Source: Hydrolagus affinis
Taxonomy: Eukaryota
Assembly (NCBI GenBank): GCA_012026655.1
Contig: JAAILG010001416.1
Coordinates: 1-64,000 of the forward strand
Direction of reading: 5' to 3'
DNA length: 64,000 nucleotides
The position numbers and the translations under genes are program-made. Shown piece after piece: positions 1,445 through 59,170 of this stretch (position 1 is its first letter; each line of letters opens with the position of its first letter). The notes beneath the pieces were generated by a model. It was not told the DNA's origin and did not search any database. It saw only the letters and a list, made by a program, of their open reading frames with translations.

Positions 1445-2508
1445 AAGGTAAGCCTCGATTTACGACGCTTCGATTTTATGACATTTCGATTGAAGGACCA
1501 TGATTTTTTAACACCCTTTGATCGATATACGACACTTGGATTTGTTTTTCGGACCAAAAATGTTTTTGCGCGTGCGCAGTACATATTTTGAAAATGCCGG
1601 TCACATTTTCGCTCTTCCTTTTTGTCCATATGCACAGTCCATAATGTATTCGCGGGTAAATCCAAGCGTTTGAACTGGCCAATAGCATGTCGCCTTGTCA
1701 TTGTTTATAAACCAGCTGATTTTGAAGCTTCATTGCCCCATGTCAGTATTACAGTAATTTCCTTACACTCCGGAGCAACTTCGAGTGATTTACAGCCTCT
1801 ACCGCATGCCTACCATGCAGGGGAAGAGACAGCAATAAGTGAAATAAGCAGTGATGATACCGCTAGTGGCCAGAAACCCCGCAAAATACCACTTTAAATA
1901 CCAAATTGGAGGTGATAAAGCGCATCGATTCTGGTGAAAAAAATACGGACATCGGGAGGGCTTTAGGACTAGTTAGATCGACGGGGGTTACTATAAAACA
2001 GAATAAGGACAATATACTGGCAAGTTCAAGGTATGTTACAGCTACAGGTGCAAGCAGATTAGCAAAACGTAGGAGTGATGTGATGGAAAACATGGAAAGA
2101 ATGCTGAGTGTCTGGATTGAGGATCAGAACCAGTGTAATATACCACTCAACACCCTGGTTATCCAAGAGAAGGCAAAATCATTGTTTAGGGAGTTAAATG
2201 ATCAGGAAGGAGAAGAGTCAACAGCACCGTCTTTCAGTGCTGGCAGAGGGTAGTTTCAAAGGTTTAAAAGACAACATGGGCTCTACAACATCAAGATGAG
2301 TGGGGAAGCTGCAAGTGCTGACACTGTTGCTGCACAAGAATATCCTGCTGAGTTATTTAATGGGTTTAAGGTCTGAAAATTTTGTGAAAAGAACGCATCT
2401 CTGGTTATATAATGGGACTGCATAGGAAATCGTTTTTCGATTTAGGACGTTTCGATATACATACAGTTTTTCAGGAACGCAACCCCATTGTAAATAGAGG
2501 TTGACCTG
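1445..2508 (+). mobile_element. Tigger/pogo-family DNA transposon, internally deleted, non-autonomous
   Basis: Imperfect ~20-bp TIRs (aaggtaagcctcgatttacg / tgtaaatagaggttgacctg), each flanked by TA. Contains a transposase N-terminal fragment. Confidence 0.85.
1870..2356 (+). pseudogene. Tigger/TIGD1-like transposase fragment (CENP-B N-terminal HTH plus Tc5 HTH), no DDE domain
   Basis: KLEVIKRIDSGEKNTDIGRALGL...MERMLSVWIEDQNQ...IQEKAKSLF...FSAGRG*FQRFKRQHGLYNIKMSGEAASADTVAAQEYP. The conserved W of GWF is replaced by TAG at 2251-2253, and there is an upstream frameshift. Confidence 0.85.
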
Positions 2509-7020: not shown

Positions 7021-7130
7021 TTAGCGATGTACCAGCACCAGTAGCCCTTCCCAAACCAACGGTGATCTCTCCAAGTTTAGCAGCTGAGTTAGAAGGATTA
7101 TTGCTTTCTAGTACATCTCCTGTCATTGAT
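7021..7130 (+). CDS. AP3B1: AP3B1 coding exon
   Basis: ttttcttgcag| acceptor and |gtaggt donor. (F)SDVPAPVALPKPTVISPSLAAELEGLLLSSTSPVID resembles human FNPVSTPVALPTPALSPSLMADLEGLHLSTSSSVIS. Phase 1 to 0. Confidence 0.93.
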
Positions 7131-19451: not shown

Positions 19452-20977
19452 TATATCAAATATAACGATTATTAGTGCCTTGGGACATCCTCCCAATGTG
19501 AAAGGCGCTCTATAAATGCAATTTTGTTATTATTATTGAAAGTAAGAAACAAAATTATTAGCTAATACATTCATTGTCCTTTCTATAACTAAAATATACA
19601 GAGCTGGCAGGTTGTAGATTGGATATGAACTGAATTAGCTGTGTCCACTTGGATTTAGTCTGAGCGTCCTGAGCTACCGAGAATGGGTGGGGTGGGGTGG
19701 GCTGGTGGAGGGGAGAGAGAGAACTGCCTAGGTTTACATTCCTGATCAGCAATGGGTGACTCATTGCTAGAAAAGAGCATGTGTGTTAGGCAATGATTTG
19801 ATTGGGTTATTTACCATAAGTAGAACCAAATTCACCTAAACAACGGTCAGTTGGTTGAGGTACCGGAGGCAGCACCTTCATGAGTCGGTGCCTTTATATA
19901 AAAAAAGGTGAAATAATTAAAGTGCCAATTAAAAAATGTTGGTGTAAGTATTTCATTAGCTTTTCTTTCTCCCTTTGGAAAGGAAACGCATTTTAGACGA
20001 TTAATCTTAATCAATATTGTGGGAGGGAAAAAGCCATGTGGAAGGATTCCTTTCCCTCTTTTTCTCAAAATCAGCCCACCTGCAGTAGATGAAGGTTCTG
20101 ATTAAAAAGGACATTTCAATGGATTAATGCTGCTCATTTTGTCTTTGCATAGCTCAAAGTGAATGCTGTTTAAAGGTTATGCATTACAGACCAAAATCTG
20201 TCCCTTTTGTAGTTGCAAACTTTACATACCAAACACTTCTTTCTTGTTCTCTTTTTTTGTACTTTTTGTAGCATACTTAGTCTCCTTGAGGGTTCTTTCA
20301 GAATGTCAGCAGGATTTTCAGGTCATTTGACAAAAAGGGTATGGGATTTGTATTGTGTTCAGAAGGTGACTATTTCTTGCATCAATCACCTCAGCTTTAA
20401 GTCGAAGCATAATAGACCCCCTCAATCAACATCTCCAAATGCTTTATCACTTGTTCATAAAAAGGGGTGAAAAATCTAGGATCGCCTAAGTCAAGGTTAG
20501 GTAATTTGTTCTGAATTATAGTTACATGTATAGCAGAGAAGAGTTTGCGAAAGTAGGTCTCACCATATGTCTGTTTTTGTCAACCTGTGATATGTAGTTG
20601 GAGCATATTCAGACCTTGAAAAATGACAGCATTGTTGAGATGTGATTCTGGACAAGATAAAGCAAAGATTAAGGCATCACTTATTGACAGACAAAACGAG
20701 TTAGTCAAACTGCAATGATGAACATCCCACCTTATACCTGCGAGGTCAAAATAAATAGCAGTACCTTAAGAAAATATAAGTTGACCACTGGTAAACATAG
20801 CTTTAAATTACAGCAACTTTTTTATTCTTCCAGTATTTCATTTTTATTGTCTGATATTTTCAAATTGTTCTTGTGTATGAAAGAGTTAGTAAATAATCTC
20901 AAATATATACTGTATAACACTTTATAGTTTGAAGGTTTAAAATTTATTTGGTGAAATATGAATGAAAGCCTTAGTGA

Positions 20978-21180
20978 AGTCATAGGAGTATAGGAACAGG
21001 TGTAGACTATTCAGTCCTTCAAGCCTGTTCCACCATTTAATTAGATCATGGCTGATCTGTACCCCCAACTAATCCTTTCAATTCCAATTTCCTGCTTTCT
21101 CCCCATTTCCCTTAATATCCTGACCTACCAAAAATCTATCAATCTCATCCTTGAAGGTGTGGATGGATCCAGTACATATA
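20978..21180 (-). mobile_element. CR1 3' end
   Basis: cataggagtataggaacaggtgtagactattcagtcc...agatcatggctgatct, related to 475-635. Confidence 0.7.
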
Positions 21181-21869
21181 TCCCTCGTATGCGCATCCTA
21201 TTTTACGGTTCCTGTCCTCTTGTGACCTTGTGTTTTCATAATTCTCTAGGAGAAAATGTAGGAGCAGCCGAGCTACACTTCTAAAGGCAATTAGCCACCG
21301 GTGGGGGAGTTGTTCAGTTACATTGCTCACTGCAGTCATTTCATGATTTTGTTTATCTATTGCTTAATCTTTTAATTGGGACACCTAGGTTACCATGGTT
21401 ACTCCTTACACTAAACACCGAGAGTAAATTTAGTGCCTGTGTTTTCCTCCTCTTTCAATTGGTGTGATAAGAGCAGGCTCACTATCTGCCAGACCATTAG
21501 TACAGTAATGTTGTTTTGAATTTGGCCAAATTCTGAAGTGATGGTCAGTTGCACTGTTTATCCTCAAACTATACATATTCACACATTGATAAATTATCCC
21601 TACAAAAGTGAACTGTCTTCTTTAACAGTAGTGAAACTGATTCCATTGTCTGGCCAACTTCATTGACTTTGTTTTTAAAGAGTTGCCATCCAAAATTGAC
21701 CATGGGGAGACTTGTGGCATAGTGAGGAAGCAGTTTTAGAAGGCTTAGACTCACAGCATCACTATCCAAGATGGTACACACCTTACTACAACAACAACAA
21801 CAACTTTGATTTATATAGCGCCCTCCACACCGGACGGCATCTCAGAGTGCTTAAAGCCAGCTAAGCTTA

Positions 21870-22595
21870 CTAAGCCAGCCCGGAACCGTGGCATCTTGTT
21901 TGAACCTCAACTATCCCTTTCACCTCACATCCGTGTCATGACCTGCTCTGCCTTCCCCCACCTTCGTGATATTGCCCAGCTCCACCACTGTCTTGCACCG
22001 CAGGCCGCCGAGACCCTCATACATACATTCATAACATCCAGGCTGAACTATGCAAACTCATTGCTTATTAGCCTCCCCTAACTCCTCCCTCTGTACAGGC
22101 TGTAGATCATCCAGAACTCTGCAGCCCATATCCTCTCTCGCTCTGTGACTCTATCACCCCCATCCTTCCCATCGCACAGAGGATACAGTTTAAGATCTTG
22201 GTCCCCACCTTCAAAGTCTTCCATGGCCTTGCTCCCCCTACCTCTTCAACCACCTAACCTCCTATCAACCTTCCCGCTTCCTCCGCTAGCGGGCTCCGGC
22301 TTGCTTCACGTCTCCCGCCTCACCCGCCCCACCATTGGCGTGCAAGTCTTCTGTCACTTTGCTCCCATCCTCTGGAACTCCATCCCACAGACGCTCCACC
22401 TCATTCCATCCCTACCTTCTTCAAGACCCCTCTCAAGAACCTCCTCTTCAACCATGCCTTCAACACCATCCTTTACCTCCCTCTGCCCTCCACCTTCCCC
22501 GATCCAGACCCCCATCTTGGGTCCAGAACATTGATATCCAACGCCTTGGAACATCCTCCCGGTGTGCGTTATAGAAATGTAATTTTTTTTTGTTG
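21870..22595 (+). mobile_element. L2 LINE ORF2 C-terminal fragment plus tail
   Basis: ARNRGILFEPQLSLSPHI...AAETLIHTFITSRLNYANSLL is the L2 RT C-terminal signature. Stops and frameshifts present; tail gccttggaacatctcc. Confidence 0.85.
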
Positions 22596-23077
22596 TGTAT
22601 CTAGGCTTCCAAAAGATTGTTTCAAAATTGTTGTCACTGCTACTGATGGCAAAAACTGAATTGTAAATTGGATGAAGAAAGGGAAGCAGAGGGTACTTGC
22701 TAGGAGAACCAAAGTCAAATGTAGGGATGTATTAAGCTGGTACCTCAGAGAACTGAACTGGAACCTCACCAGTTTCTTGTATACATCAATAACTTTGATT
22801 CGCAAACATAGTGCATGATAGTTAAATTTACACATGCCACCGAAATGGCTGCGGGGAGGAGTAAGGAGGCAGCAACGGGCTTCAAAAGGAGAGTTGATGA
22901 TTGGCAAATTATGGGTAATGCAGCTAAATAAAAGGAACTGCATAGAGGAAGTAAAGAATTAAATGAAGAGGATGGAACTTCCAAATGGGAAGTTGAAAGA
23001 GGTCTTGGGGTGTTAGCTGACACATGGTTTATCCGTCCAAACGGTTCGTGGCAGCAATAAACAGATCCCCAGAAGTC

Positions 23078-23214
23078 AATTCTGACGAAGGGTCGTGGAC
23101 TCGAAACGTCAACTCACTTTTCCTTTCTCCATAGTTGCCGCCTGACAAAGTTCACAGCGATTTCTGTTTTTGTTTCAGATTTCCAGCATCTGCAGTATTT
23201 TGCATTTCTTTTTC
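23078..23214 (+). mobile_element. Short Penelope-like-element-derived insert with a hammerhead motif and 11-bp TSD
   Basis: Flanked by ccccagaagtc at 23067-23077 and 23215-23225. Homologous to 57009-57143 and to the reverse complement of 53712-53840. Confidence 0.75.
23079..23115 (+). ncRNA. Minimal type-I hammerhead ribozyme motif, catalytic core intact
   Basis: CUGACGA-A-GGGUC-gug-GACUC-GAAA-CGUC: core, 5-bp stem II, loop-less palindromic stem III and a GUC cleavage triplet at 23108-23110. Stem I is weak. Confidence 0.6.
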
Positions 23215-23429
23215 CCCCAGAAGTCGTGTTTTAAGATGTACAGTGCTTTGATTAAACTGTACCTGGAGTCCTGCATACAGTTCTGGTCACTGCAACACAA
23301 AGTGGTTAGCCAGTCTCTAGAGGCAGTGAAGATGAGAGCCACAAGGATGATCACTCAGGGTTCCAGATATGACCTATGAACAATGATTAGACAGACTAGG
23401 GCTATTCAGTCTTCAAAAGAGATGCCTGG

Positions 23430-23845
23430 GAGTAGCCTGATGGTATAGTGGATAGAGCTGTAGTTAATGGAATGCGAGCTAGTTGGGTTTGAATCCTGGT
23501 CTATCCACAGATTGCTGATATTAGCTGCGATTGGAAGGGAGACTAAATTGGCTCCCCAAGGTTAGGGTAAGAGATGACCTGTCAGGATTCCTGCTCCGGG
23601 TTCCTCTTCAACATCTCCTGGTTTAGTGTAACTAGTGTAGCTGATTAGGGAGAGGACAGACTTAGCTGTATTACTTCTGTGGTTCCGGTGGCTGCCAATA
23701 GTCTCAACCAAGGTTCACACGTGGACAGCAGCTATTTGGGCGTCATATCAGAGCACAATCGCTGCCTGTAAAATAGTTCCCACCCTGGGAAGCCAGATCA
23801 GAAGCGAAGAGATTTATGATGATGGAGAGAAAAATAATTGGAAAC
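23430..23845 (+). mobile_element. Ancient unclassified tRNA-headed SINE-like element
   Basis: A/B-box-like head (tggtatagtgg...gggtttgaatcc). Motifs shared with 19620-19890 and 60050-60350 (gaggacaga, ttggg...ca, ggagagaaaaat). Confidence 0.45.
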
Positions 23846-25649
23846 AGTAAAAAGAAAATTTTGAAGTTTGAGAGAAGGGTGTATAGAATTAAAAGATTTT
23901 AAATGGATTTAAGAAAGTAAATCTAGAAAAATACTTTCAGATATGCCAAGGCAGCAACAGTAACATCCACAACAATTTGGATTTATATAGCGCTCTCCAC
24001 ACCAGGCAGCGTCTCAGAGCACAACAAGGAAAGCGCAGGTTCAGAGTTGCAACGGGTAATTTCAGGACAGACATTGGGAGTTATTGCTTTACCCAGAGGA
24101 TAATTAACAACTAGAAATGGTTACCAGAAAGGCTGAGTGCTGGACTCATTTGTTAAAGATCATTTAAGAAACAGCTCGTGCTGTAATGAGAGAAAGGTTG
24201 GTTGGTTATTGTGTAATTACGAGATCCAAAGCACCTTGATCAGATCCTCTCTTACGATGAGGTGTGGATCCAGTTGCCAGGGAGATAAAGGTGGGCTTTG
24301 GGTTGGGGTGTTGCCTTGTGTACAGGAGGAACAGGTGCATGCACACTCTGCCATGTTTGAAGAATGTTTATTACATTTCAGCAGAACAACTATTTTGATC
24401 TCAGAATCTGAGCTCTGACCTCGGATAGGTGAAACAAACTGGTTACACAGTGCAGTGTTGTTTGACACTCGAGCTAGTTTCCTGCTTGCTCTGTTGCAGG
24501 CTAATAGCTAGAGGGGCACTTTGTGGAGAGATAGTCATTTTGGGGGGGAGAAAGCTGAGGTGAAAAAACTGTGAGAATTAAAGGTGTAACATGACATTTT
24601 CAATTCTTGAAACTGTAGCACACATCTTTTGGAAAAATGCTATTTGCTATTCATGAGTTTTATATTGCAATTTTTAGTTCAATGTGTTTACCGGGCTGGA
24701 GGTGGCATAGAAATATATACAGTACTTCAAGGTTGAGATAGAACATTTAGTTGAAAATTATTGTACTAATGTATAATTGTACTCATACAGTATATGAGCA
24801 TTAATTGGTTTATTTCCATCTCTTGTGAACTCTACAGTCTAACACATATTTATCCTGGTTTGCATCAGTCAGCTGTGCTTCACTGATGGTTATTCGGATG
24901 GCTTTACGATTTATTGAATTTCATTGTGTGTTGATTCAACTCGTGTATTTGCATGAGGTTGCAATAAATGTTCTACCAAAAAAATTATATCCACTCACTA
25001 TGTTAGTACAATGCAAACAGGTCAATGTCCATTAATTTTTCCAGATATGTTAATATGCAAAAGCCTTTTTGAAAAAAATTAAGAGTATTTCCTCATCAAA
25101 ACACTTACATAGTGAGTAGATATAACTGAGGTTTCAATAAATGTGTTGCTCAGTGATATATGTTCATTACTTTTAAATGCTTCAATGGAGTAGATGGAAA
25201 TTAATGTGCACAGAGGGAGATCTGCCTTGTATCTAAGTCTCTGATTGTTTAACTAAAATACTCAGAAGTTTATGCTACAATTTTTTTCAAAAAAATTGCT
25301 GAGTAAAGTTTTATTTGACTGGTACATTGGGCATTTTTTAGTCCTTGATGCAGATGAGAGCAGTAAAACTGGGCTGTAGGCCAGCAAGGTTGATTCTGAC
25401 TAACTCAATTGTGATAAAACTTGATGTTTGCTTTTTTATGTTTACGTACCGGAGATTTGTAGTATAAGTAAAAAAAACTGAAGCCATTAGGATTCAGGAA
25501 ATTGCATTATTCAAAAATACTGTGTATTGTATAATTTACAGGTTGGCTTTTTTTGTGTTCATGAATTTTTTTGAACTCGTTCTTGAAACGTTTGTAATGT
25601 TGGTAAGGCAGTAATTTATTGCCTATCCCTGATACCTCTGCAAAGAGAG

Positions 25650-26125
25650 CTTTCTGCACCAAGCTCTGTGACCACATCATTCCCACCCTCGCCTGGCTCC
25701 ATTGACTCCCCATCCCCCAGAGGATCGAATTCAAGCTCCTCTTCCTCACTTTCAAGGCCATTCACAGCCTTGCCCCCTCCTTTCTCTCCGACCTGCTGAC
25801 TCCCTATGAACCTGCCTGCCCTCTTCGTTCAGTGGGCTCCGGTCTACTTCATGTCCCCCATCTGACCCGCCCTACCATCGGTGGACAGGCTTTCACCCTC
25901 TCTTCCCCCACACTCCATCCCACAGTCCCTTTGCCTCGCTTCCTCCCTTGCCTCCTTCAAGGCCGATCTCAAGAGCCTTCAATCATGCCTTCTGCTACCC
26001 TCCTAAACTCTCTCAATCCCCTCCCAACGCTCTTCCTCCACCCTACCCTGCCCCTACGCCTTTGTGCGGGTCCCAACCTAACTGTTCAGTGTCTTGGGAC
26101 GTCCTCCCAACGTGAAAGGAGTTCG
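25650..26125 (+). mobile_element. L2 LINE 3' fragment
   Basis: DHIIPTLAWLH*LPIPQRIEFKLLFLTFKAIHSLAP...GSGLLHVPHLTRPTIGGQAF, plus tail ttgggacgtcctcccaacgtgaaagg. Confidence 0.85.
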
Positions 26126-29543: not shown

Positions 29544-29775
29544 GTTACCACTCCGGTATTTGTTCCTTCAAAATCATTCGAACTGCTCCATCGGATGTCT
29601 GGTAAAGGCCTTGGGGCTCAGTATCACTTTCCACGTCAGCCTTGCATTTACAGCTCAAAAATGGTGTCTGTTCAGATCATGCTAACTAACACCTCAGACA
29701 AAGAAATAACCAACATTGAAATGGGAGAGCGAAAACTTGCACCAGGAATGCAGATTCACGACTTCCACAAGCTAG
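29544..29775 (+). CDS. AP3B1: AP3B1 coding exon, start of the ear/appendage domain
   Basis: ctacag| acceptor and |gtattt donor. VTTPVFVPSKSFELLHRMSGKGLGAQYHFPRQPCIYSSKMVSVQIMLTNTSDKEITNIEMGERKLAPGMQIHDFHKL. LLHRMSGKG fits beta-3A rather than beta-3B. 232 nt, phase 0 to 1. Confidence 0.97.
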
Positions 29776-53711: not shown

Positions 53712-53865
53712 AGGAAAAATACTCCAGATGCTGGAAATCTGAAATAAAAAGAGAAATTGCTGGGATCGCTCAGCAGGTCAGGCAGCATCTATGGAGAGAA
53801 GAAAGTTAACGTTTCAGGTTGATGACCTTTTGCCAGAACTACATCAGAAGTCTGATGAAAGATCA
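53712..53865 (-). mobile_element. Penelope-derived insert with a decayed hammerhead motif and a short inverted end
   Basis: Minus strand reads AGUU-CUGGCAA-AAGGUCAUCAACCU-GAAA-CGUU-AACU. Stem I is perfect and the core is mutated. An inverted ctgatgaaagatc lies at 53852. Confidence 0.7.
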
Positions 53866-56650: not shown

Positions 56651-56996
56651 GCTTTGTTGGATCTGCCATCTGGCAAGTGTTGATTTCCCAATCTCACTCG
56701 AGGATTTGAGATAGGAAAGACGTAAACCCCTGTCTTTACGTAGGAGAAAGTCACTTCAAATCTGTTCTACACTTTCCAAAGGCTGGTGTGTGAGTTGACG
56801 TTTTGTAGACCTGTGAAGGGCTCACTGGACCGTGGGATGGGACATGAAAGAATACAAGAGGCAGAGCTGTCCTTCTACTCTTTTCCCCCCTCTGGTTTTG
56901 TAATGTATAGAAATCATGATCTCAGTAAGAGCTCTAAATTTCCCCCTTTCAGTATTTGCACTGACGGTAAAGCTGCAGACATGCCAAGAAGTGCTG

Positions 56997-57143
56997 AAAC
57001 AAAAACAAATTCTGATGAAGGGTCTTGGACCCGAAATCTTGACTCACTTCTCCTTTCTCCATAGATGCTATCTGACCCGCTGAATGTTCCCAATGAATTC
57101 TGTTTTTGATTCAGACTTCCAGTATCTGCAGTATTTTGCGTTT
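56997..57143 (+). mobile_element. Penelope-derived insert with a hammerhead motif and 15-bp TSD
   Basis: tgccaagaagtgctg (56982-56996) and tgccaagaaatgctg (57144-57158) flank CUGAUGA-A-GGGUC-uug-GACCC-GAAA-UCUU. Confidence 0.75.
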
Positions 57144-59170
57144 TGCCAAGAAATGCTGTTTGTTTAAACTGTCACTGCTGATTATCGGAGCTTTAATCGA
57201 TTCAAAATATCCTCTATTTGCATCATTTAATCTTATGTGTGGGGGGTGGTATTGTTTGTACTAAAATTATCATTTTGTTCTAATAGAAATCAGGAGGGGA
57301 AATATTACAAATCCTGTTGGTAGCTTCTCTACTTCAAAGTAAAAGCAGGGAGCTGGTGTTTGTCAAACAGCTTGTATGCATCTTAATCTTGATTATGTGC
57401 CAGTATCTCCAATTACTATTGTAAACCTACCGAGGATAGCCACTAACAGCACGTGGAGGTGCTTCTTATGTTGTCCGTCTCTTCCTCCTACATTTGCTTT
57501 GGAGGTAAAATGTAAAAGTGAGTTTATTAAATTTCCAAATGGTTAAACCAGTTCCCATTTCAGAAATGCTTCTTCAGTGCTGAGGAGCTAAAATTGGGTT
57601 TGGGGTGTACGCTGTAATTATTTGATGATTAGGATTCCAAACAGTATTTTTCCCTGTGTTCTTGTGTAGTTGTTACATTGGGGACTTGTGTTTGCTGGTG
57701 TACAGCTGCTTCAGTTGATTTACAGTACTGCGGCTGTGGCCAGTCATAAATAAATCCTCTTATATAGTTGTTATGAACACCTGTTAGATCATCTGTCAGC
57801 AAAGCAGTGTTCACATTTATCATGGTGCGGTAGTTATTTTACCACAATCCATTTACAGTGGACTCTGCCTCCATCACTGTATTACTATTACTGCACCATA
57901 ATCGCTCGTTTCCACTCCGTGTACAACTTGCAGATAAAAGATTTCAGTACTTGGCAAAATTTCATAAATAAAGGAGCAGTTCACTGCAGTAAAAGTTTAT
58001 TTTTGTCATCATTTGTCACACTATTATACCATAAATCAAATGGTATAGTGCTATCCGTGGCGCAGACAGCTCTGTCAGCCTAGACATGGAAATGGTCGGT
58101 TTCTCTGTAGATGAGATGGCATGTCTTTTGACTTTAACAGGCTGATGGCTTTTCTCACTCATTTGATTTTATTGGATTTAAAACCTGGAGGATTATTGAA
58201 GCTGGTGAACTATAGAGACACCTCAGAGAACATTCATGGCATGATAATTAAACCACCCTTGTTATTAGCACATTTTCCTTCGTAAACAAAGCTACTGCCT
58301 TAACAAGTCAGATTTACTCAGAATTGCTGATGGCTGATTAACCATATGCACTAGAGTGGATGTATATGTCGAAGAATGGCATTAAAAATAAAATAATAAT
58401 TCTTGCATTTGATATACCGCCTTATCATGTCTTCAAGATGTCTCAAATTGCTTCACAGAATATACTCTAAAGTGAATTGACTATATTTTGTAAGCAAAAA
58501 TTGTGCTTGATGCACAAGATAATGCGAATATTTCAAATGTTATATCTTCATATCTAACTGTGCAAAAAAATCTTTCTTTACTATACGTCTTATTCATGTT
58601 TTTGAAATCTTTTTTTTTACCCTTCATTTGTTTAACACTTTGTCATACTCAATTTACCAGCCACATTTACGACAATAGAGTTCTGCTGTATTTACTGGGT
58701 GCAATGTGAATGTACCATATTTCACTACTGATTCTCCCACGATTCATCTAGCAATCCTGCAATTGTAATATCATTGCATTTCTAGAGAACATATTGTACA
58801 CTTCACTGCAGGCAGCTGTCTATATAGCTGTTGAAGTTACTGGAGATGCATATATATCAGCTATATAGACAGTGAACTGTAGAATATTTACTTTAGGAAG
58901 GCAGAAGATGTTATTATAAGGCTCAGAATTGCTGCATGAAACGTGGCACATTTACATTGCACCTATTATATAGGCTAACATCCCCTGCTGAATCAACTCA
59001 GTTTATCAGTCCATTGACACTACTCCATAAATGTATATTTGTAAAAGTCAATGTCCTGTGCCCCCATAACCTGCTTGTAAACAAACTGTTAGCGTTGCAC
59101 ACAGAACATGCCTATAATAGAATTCTTCCAACATTTTAAAACACAGTAAACTTTTCCTGATTTTTATGTT

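Follow-up and report, generated by a model that had tools for sequence, protein, structure and literature searches.

The window, i.e. the whole 64,000-nucleotide stretch of the Hydrolagus affinis contig JAAILG010001416.1 analysed here, carries a 137-bp insert (23078-23214, + strand) that is very probably the end of an abundant Neptune-type Penelope-like retroelement (PLE). It likely arose as a short run-off cDNA and is likely inert within its AP3B1 host intron. The 5' ends of its relatives are informative. When positions are counted from C3 of the hammerhead core, 86 of the 114 sampled copies that reach the interval -7..+1 end within it, and only 5 of the 140 that reach the bin containing the cleavage site (+25..+33) end there, implying that the inserts were likely made as run-off cDNAs from uncleaved RNA whose 5' end lies immediately upstream of the ribozyme. 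The locus itself is minor, since the motif has been described and the genome contains thousands of decaying copies of it; the family is modestly useful for reconstructing the insertion of Penelope-like elements. The avoidance of the cleavage site by the 5' ends agrees, in genomic copies, with an in vitro result in which the template was uncleaved. The boundary formed by these ends predicts the start site of the element to within three bases, which bears on the role of PLE hammerheads.

The insert is bracketed by an exact 11-nt direct repeat (23067-23077 and 23215-23225, both +), confirming the earlier claim of an 11-bp target-site duplication around a 137-bp insert with the core 4 nt inside. 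The 5' strand of stem I occupies 23078-23081, which is also the usual 5' boundary of the family, and is followed on the same strand by the CUGANGA core with an extra unpaired A before stem II (23082-23089, C3 at 23082), a 5-bp stem II with a 3-nt loop (23090-23102), GAAA with the palindromic ACGU and H17 (23103-23110), and the 3' strand of stem I (23111-23114). ACGU lies at 23106-23109 with no loop III, H17 is C at 23110, and the NUH triplet GUC ends at 23110; cleavage would be predicted between 23110 and 23111. The minimal type-I hammerhead with an intact core and a loop-less ACGU stem III is therefore borne out at 23082-23110. Stem II pairs in 5/5 positions, one family G-C pair being G-U here, and both G10.1-C11.1 and the preceding unpaired nucleotide are present. 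Stem I had been suspected to be weak, and it does pair at three of four positions (U-A, U-A, A×C, A-U, the mismatch being internal, with A at 23079 where most copies have G), compared with 4/4 in the family majority. Downstream, the insert has a 6-nt internal deletion near 23147 and an optional tail of ~35 nt (23173-23207, +, approximate limits) between the two 3' ends used by the family.

The window yields a single match to a strict minimal-hammerhead pattern, where 100 shuffles average 0.01. A looser pattern is near chance, with 10 window matches against a mean of 5.05, a number reached by 11 of 100 shuffles. The search with the Rfam hammerhead model that had been suggested as a check was negative: scanning 20000-26000 returned no hammerhead match even at E values up to 10. 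In the sequencing run X6, possibly connected with the assembly source, contigs span both insert junctions, which argues against an assembly artefact, and carry the hammerhead without differences. The flank differs from X6 at 6 places in 378 bases while the hammerhead is unchanged, a distance too close to the assembly for conservation to be judged.

The host intron is delimited by two + strand exons. The upstream one (7021-7130) matches positions 8-50 of the Pfam AP3B1_C profile with an E value of 0.018, weaker than the curated cut-off, and the stretch tested downstream (29544-29747) matches positions 50-116 at 1.2e-28. They represent consecutive parts of AP3B1_C and join in frame, so that the insert lies in the sense orientation within a 22.4-kb intron, which also includes one masked stretch. 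A PDB sequence search with the downstream exon gave no match. The sense placement in an AP3B1-family intron thus stands, and the gene is presumed to be AP3B1, not the paralogue AP3B2. Two stretches of the insert resemble splice acceptors in the intron's own orientation when set against the acceptor consensus: one at 23113-23134 (+), with a branch-point-like motif, a pyrimidine run and AG at 23133-23134, and another at 23161-23178 (+), with a pyrimidine run and AG at 23177-23178. For the host, cryptic splicing from these stretches may be a more probable consequence than cleavage.

The recipient of the insertion is a decayed fragment of the C-terminal part of a LINE ORF2 (23215-23434, +). The right flank of the insert corresponds to the C-terminal portion of a LINE reverse-transcriptase (RT) frame and the left flank matches patchily, while the duplicated target sequence is present only once in uninterrupted LINE relatives (14/15 bases in L179 and 13/13 in L181). 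The claim that a CR1 fragment was interrupted holds for the target and the right flank; its left side is less clear, and the fragment is presumably CR1-like. One base at window position 23229 is missing in run X6, which puts the reading frame of the LINE fragment in register across the target site.

On the evidence of its matches to family copies, the insert is a hammerhead-plus-tail piece of a protein-coding Neptune-type Penelope-like element, one among thousands in the genome. The best relatives found by DNA search, in which 40 of 1,290 candidates were scored, are 84-87% identical to the insert. Exact genome matches number 839 for the core, 1,328 for the tail, 2,146 for the middle and 4,449 for any intact minimal core with ACGU; the reversed controls for the same four patterns give 0, 0, 0 and 75, and the real matches are even across strands. 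An intact core is accordingly less notable than had been supposed: in addition to these 4,449 exact cores genome-wide, 17 of the 91 sampled copies that span the core keep it together with ACGU and NUH.

In all of 20 long copies, selected because they had sequence 5' of the hammerhead, this sequence is 210-714 nt long and leads into a GIY-YIG frame. The order in the longer loci is RT, a CX4CXXC linker, GIY-YIG, a few hundred untranslated bases, and then the same hammerhead and tail, which bears out the Penelope-like origin that had been proposed. The RT is recognised by RVT_1 in L134 (E 3.7e-7), and the endonuclease (EN) by GIY-YIG in L135 (E 1.9e-5, passing the cut-off) and L112 (E 0.002, failing it). 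These Pfam-scored domains come from the sister of two subfamilies, which is 77-82% identical to the insert; an RT frame is also found in L145, from the insert's own subfamily. Sister-subfamily copies have the hammerhead and tail in front of the coding body as well, with a likely start codon ~170 nt past C3. The arrangement with a hammerhead and tail both before and after the ORF was pieced together from different loci, none of those read holding a single complete copy.

We file the parent provisionally as Neptune-type on its linker rather than on an RT tree. Nematis, which has the same linker, is presumably ruled out for the parent by its host range. The CX4CXXC sequence between RT and EN fits the CX2-5CXXC linker described as marking Neptune and Nematis (PMC8557442). 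With the Neptune EN+ PLEs described in PMC8557442 and PMC3846280, the parent shares the order of RT and C-terminal GIY-YIG, the Cys linker, the hammerhead in the pLTR, an optional tail of 30-40 bp and an inverted, 5'-truncated partner; the TATA/Inr-like pLTR motif of the Hydrolagus family has a parallel in A. vaga Pen2a (same sources).

Two relatives lie elsewhere in the window. The nearest same-strand copy (57008-57143, +) is 33.9 kb away, ~1.1 kb past the stop codon, and has AUCU in place of ACGU. Within 56982-57160, this copy is flanked by a 15-bp duplication with one mismatch, starts at -4 and has an 11-nt inverted piece at its 5' junction. A divergent relative with 75% identity and a broken core (53716-53838, -) lies antisense in the last AP3B1-family intron.

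The ends of the family were mapped in 157 copies, all from the largest contigs: the first 90 of 1,328 tail matches and 69 of 2,146 middle matches (30, then 39), with four middle matches that overlapped tail loci skipped and two more duplicates dropped. The 3' ends are bimodal, 32/69 falling at +92..+108 and 30/69 at +126 or beyond, ~33 nt apart. The 5' boundary is hard, falling 3-5 nt before the core, and the window copy starts at -4, which is the modal 5' end. Nine-nucleotide bins other than those of the boundary and the cleavage site lose between 1 and 8 copies each. In long copies the boundary coincides with an initiator-like motif, which a TATA-like motif precedes by ~30 nt, both called against the TATA and initiator consensus sequences. 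Run X6 contributes 215 loose contig ends before 23080 with unrelated flanks, as contig ends that show neither RNA ends nor strand. An exact duplication of 8 bp or more accompanies only 9 of 39 non-inverted short copies (control, 20/760).

One body-length insertion, from the sister subfamily, starts at -3. It is found in five loci (L286, L293, L294, L296 and L300) that have the same upstream flank and is therefore counted as a single event; the shared flank implies that the insertion was multiplied afterwards, by duplication or by carriage within another repeat. This single event is the source of the body-length start, none being seen for the subfamily of the window copy.

A spliced template, with an acceptor just before stem I as in D. 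virilis, was considered and rejected since 61 short pieces have no common sequence beyond -5. It is also conceivable, if rather unlikely, that the boundary marks a site at which RT stalls or folds back at the hammerhead on a longer template, and not an RNA end. The boundary does fall on the 5' strand of stem I, many junctions are inverted head to head (42/90 copies of the tail sample and 30/69 of the middle sample have an inverted partner upstream), and a cap-derived G at the 5' junctions is not significant (18/54 against a background of 26%, p 0.14). However, RT would first meet the 3' strand of stem I and stem II, where few copies stop (5/140, 6/128 and 8/122), and the boundary persists in non-inverted copies, 39/60 of which end there against 3/73 in the cleavage-site bin. 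Copies that pass the boundary rarely stop farther upstream (1/28, 4/27 and 1/23), and the placement of the TATA-like and initiator-like motifs is likewise at odds with a stall.

The same counts bear on whether the inserts derive from RNA cleaved by the hammerhead, or cleaved and circularised, which would fit a role proposed for PLE hammerheads (PMC4209133). Linear cleaved RNA would start the inserts at +29, but the stops in that bin are like those of its neighbours, and in the absence of a peak at +29 this RNA is a poor candidate for the template; a circle would leave the stop at -4 unexplained. We regard this origin as extremely unlikely.

We think it reasonably probable instead that the element RNA starts at the 5' boundary, and that the element protein, having nicked the target, begins reverse transcription at an internal site and continues on the uncleaved RNA as far as the 5' end. 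Transcription would be driven by the TATA-like and initiator-like motifs of long copies. After nicking of the target DNA by the element protein, reverse transcription would begin ~100 or 133 nt past the core, and copying to the 5' end would yield inserts of 105-140 bp. Priming at the 5'-proximal tail would give the short inserts, and priming at the 3' copy the long inserts, which are rarer and truncated to varying degrees. Genomic copies directly show the parent, both 3' ends and the 5' boundary; the RNA start site and the run-off step are what we infer.

Experiments with the Anolis carolinensis Poseidon element PAc are closely comparable. As described in PMC11167929, two internal RT start sites bound the tail of PAc in vitro, uncleaved RNA is used, cleavage is dispensable, and the 5' end of the RNA sets the product length; the Hydrolagus family has two 3' ends that bound its tail, pointing to two such start sites and likewise to an uncleaved template. 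The two cases differ in that PAc belongs to the Poseidon clade and its ORF starts at stem II, whereas the likely start codon of the Hydrolagus element is farther downstream, and in that the PAc evidence is from in vitro reactions and ours from genomic copies. In D. virilis Penelope, a TATA-less internal promoter starts transcription well upstream of the hammerhead (PMC2377424), indicating that a start at the hammerhead edge is not universal. A pile-up of 5' ends at this edge, as seen in the Hydrolagus family, is not stated for minimal hammerheads in the accessible portion of PMC4209133. We found no statement of it in the literature, supplements being outside the scope of that search; Fig. S2 of PMC11167929, which gives genomic coverage, may show it.

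The insert had also been described as a mini-retroelement, a description superseded by its identity as the end piece of a protein-coding Neptune-type element. A separate non-autonomous family, SINE-like or retrozyme, produced from short masters would account for the fixed 5' end and the modal lengths; the same start could serve to transcribe solo pLTR copies in which the upstream motif is retained, and retrozyme monomers derived from PLEs have been described (10.64898/2026.07.22.740005). Against this, the sequence of the short copies agrees throughout with that of long coding copies at their ends, and the short copies have no upstream promoter-like motif, so that they could not restart themselves. 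Moreover, the 87 tail ends share no common downstream body, and head-to-tail arrays were not noticed in the loci read, without a dedicated search. We therefore hold a separate family to be improbable. Non-LTR retrozymes (10.64898/2026.07.22.740005) are likewise non-coding and equipped with a type I hammerhead from PLE pLTRs; they are tandem repeats with two or more consecutive hammerheads, whereas the window copy is a lone one. Retrozyme identity was rejected for the window copy, with one strict match in 64 kb, the nearest relatives 30-34 kb away and no tandem units.

As for the ribozyme itself, we think it very likely that the window copy does not cut the AP3B1 pre-mRNA, judging from its predicted pairing and surroundings. 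Of 56 positions, 4 depart from the majority of the sample, giving the A×C in stem I, the G-U in stem II, and GUC-A where the majority has GUU-G. The last change makes 5 bp of pairing with the core possible, and this pairing prevails in the predicted fold of the motif on its own: in the 37-mer, the core is predicted to pair with 23107-23111 at probabilities of 0.85-1.0, and the predicted pair probability of stem I is at most 0.01 in four contexts. Copies of the family type show a weaker form of this mispairing in predicted folds, so it is not unique to the window copy. The mismatch in stem I may stem from the source element rather than from decay, given that 13 of 91 copies have A at -3. Minimal hammerheads require a partner, and with a broken stem I and no partner nearby the window copy is probably inert.

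An active copy, which would cut the AP3B1 pre-mRNA after 23110 through a dimer formed in trans or with help from the element protein, seems very unlikely. In its favour are the presence of all core nucleotides, ACGU and the GUC triplet in the sense orientation, the lack of change in run X6, and the cleavage of the anole element hammerhead once its protein is added (PMC11167929). On the other side stand the A×C in a 4-bp stem I, the G-U in stem II and the competing pairing of the core, and the sole same-strand copy in the window is 33.9 kb off with AUCU. An intact core is common by survival alone (17/91), and PMC4209133 reports single minimal hammerheads without activity and only weak dimers. 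A wider form of the idea, in which expression of the parent element switches on intact intronic minimal hammerheads in trans, its RNA supplying the ACGU partner and its protein acting as folding chaperone, so that AP3B1 and many other pre-mRNAs would be cut, is speculative and most unlikely.

The copies give no sign that the core is preserved after insertion; it is unprotected and decays neutrally. Core changes outside CpG amount to 34/816 (4.2%) against 57/1262 (4.5%) downstream (p 0.74), and the essential G8 and G12 decay (49/180) like their unconstrained CpG counterparts, N7 and the loop G (55/181, p 0.56). The first of these comparisons drops columns +34..+36 and adds +45 and +46. An apparent conservation of the core (34/816 against 139/1320, p 8e-8) was discarded as an artefact of misaligned columns +34..+36, at which the reference copy is atypical. 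Among the 91 core-spanning copies, five keep the full stem II and the stem I G-C in addition to the core, ACGU and NUH, copies cut inside stem I being scored as broken. Covariation in the stems within the subfamily is unconvincing, the changes being mostly one-sided or pair-breaking. A genome-wide search for a subfamily with covarying stem II gave 13 matches altered on both sides of one pair, six of them to C-G, which is unconvincing since two transitions yield C-G by chance. Neither excess conservation of the core nor covariation in stem II, which the sequence-only reading had named as its computational test, was thus found among the copies.

By every sequence feature tested except stem I and covariation, the window copy counts as a minimal hammerhead from the pLTR terminus of an EN+ PLE. 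Those described in metazoan PLE pLTRs are type I, with a core-only stem III that has a palindromic 15.2-16.2, a short stem I, an unpaired nucleotide before stem II and G10.1-C11.1, and truncated elements leave thousands of dispersed single motifs, ~4,000 in coelacanth and ~9,000 in Xenopus tropicalis (PMC4209133). Compared with these the window copy is the same in kind, differing by one mismatch in stem I. Amniote intronic type I hammerheads such as that of RECK also lie in the sense strand of an intron but are canonical and conserved across species (PMC6155905), whereas the window copy is minimal and sits in a decaying repeat; its sequence shows no apparent sign of domestication.

Several minor observations accompany these results. 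In L293, L294 and L297, a short upstream frame begins after the hammerhead, crosses the tail and lies before the coding start, and a pyrimidine-rich AG is located 3 nt before the likely start codon. The truncated copies L278 and L298 begin near this AG, possibly a trace of an intron. At G000:C49:18694-18727, a minimal hammerhead core whose stem II is longer and of different sequence type probably belongs to another element family. Finally, the window has an open reading frame at 1867-2250 (+) that presumably resembles the N-terminal helix-turn-helix region of a pogo/Tigger-type transposase.
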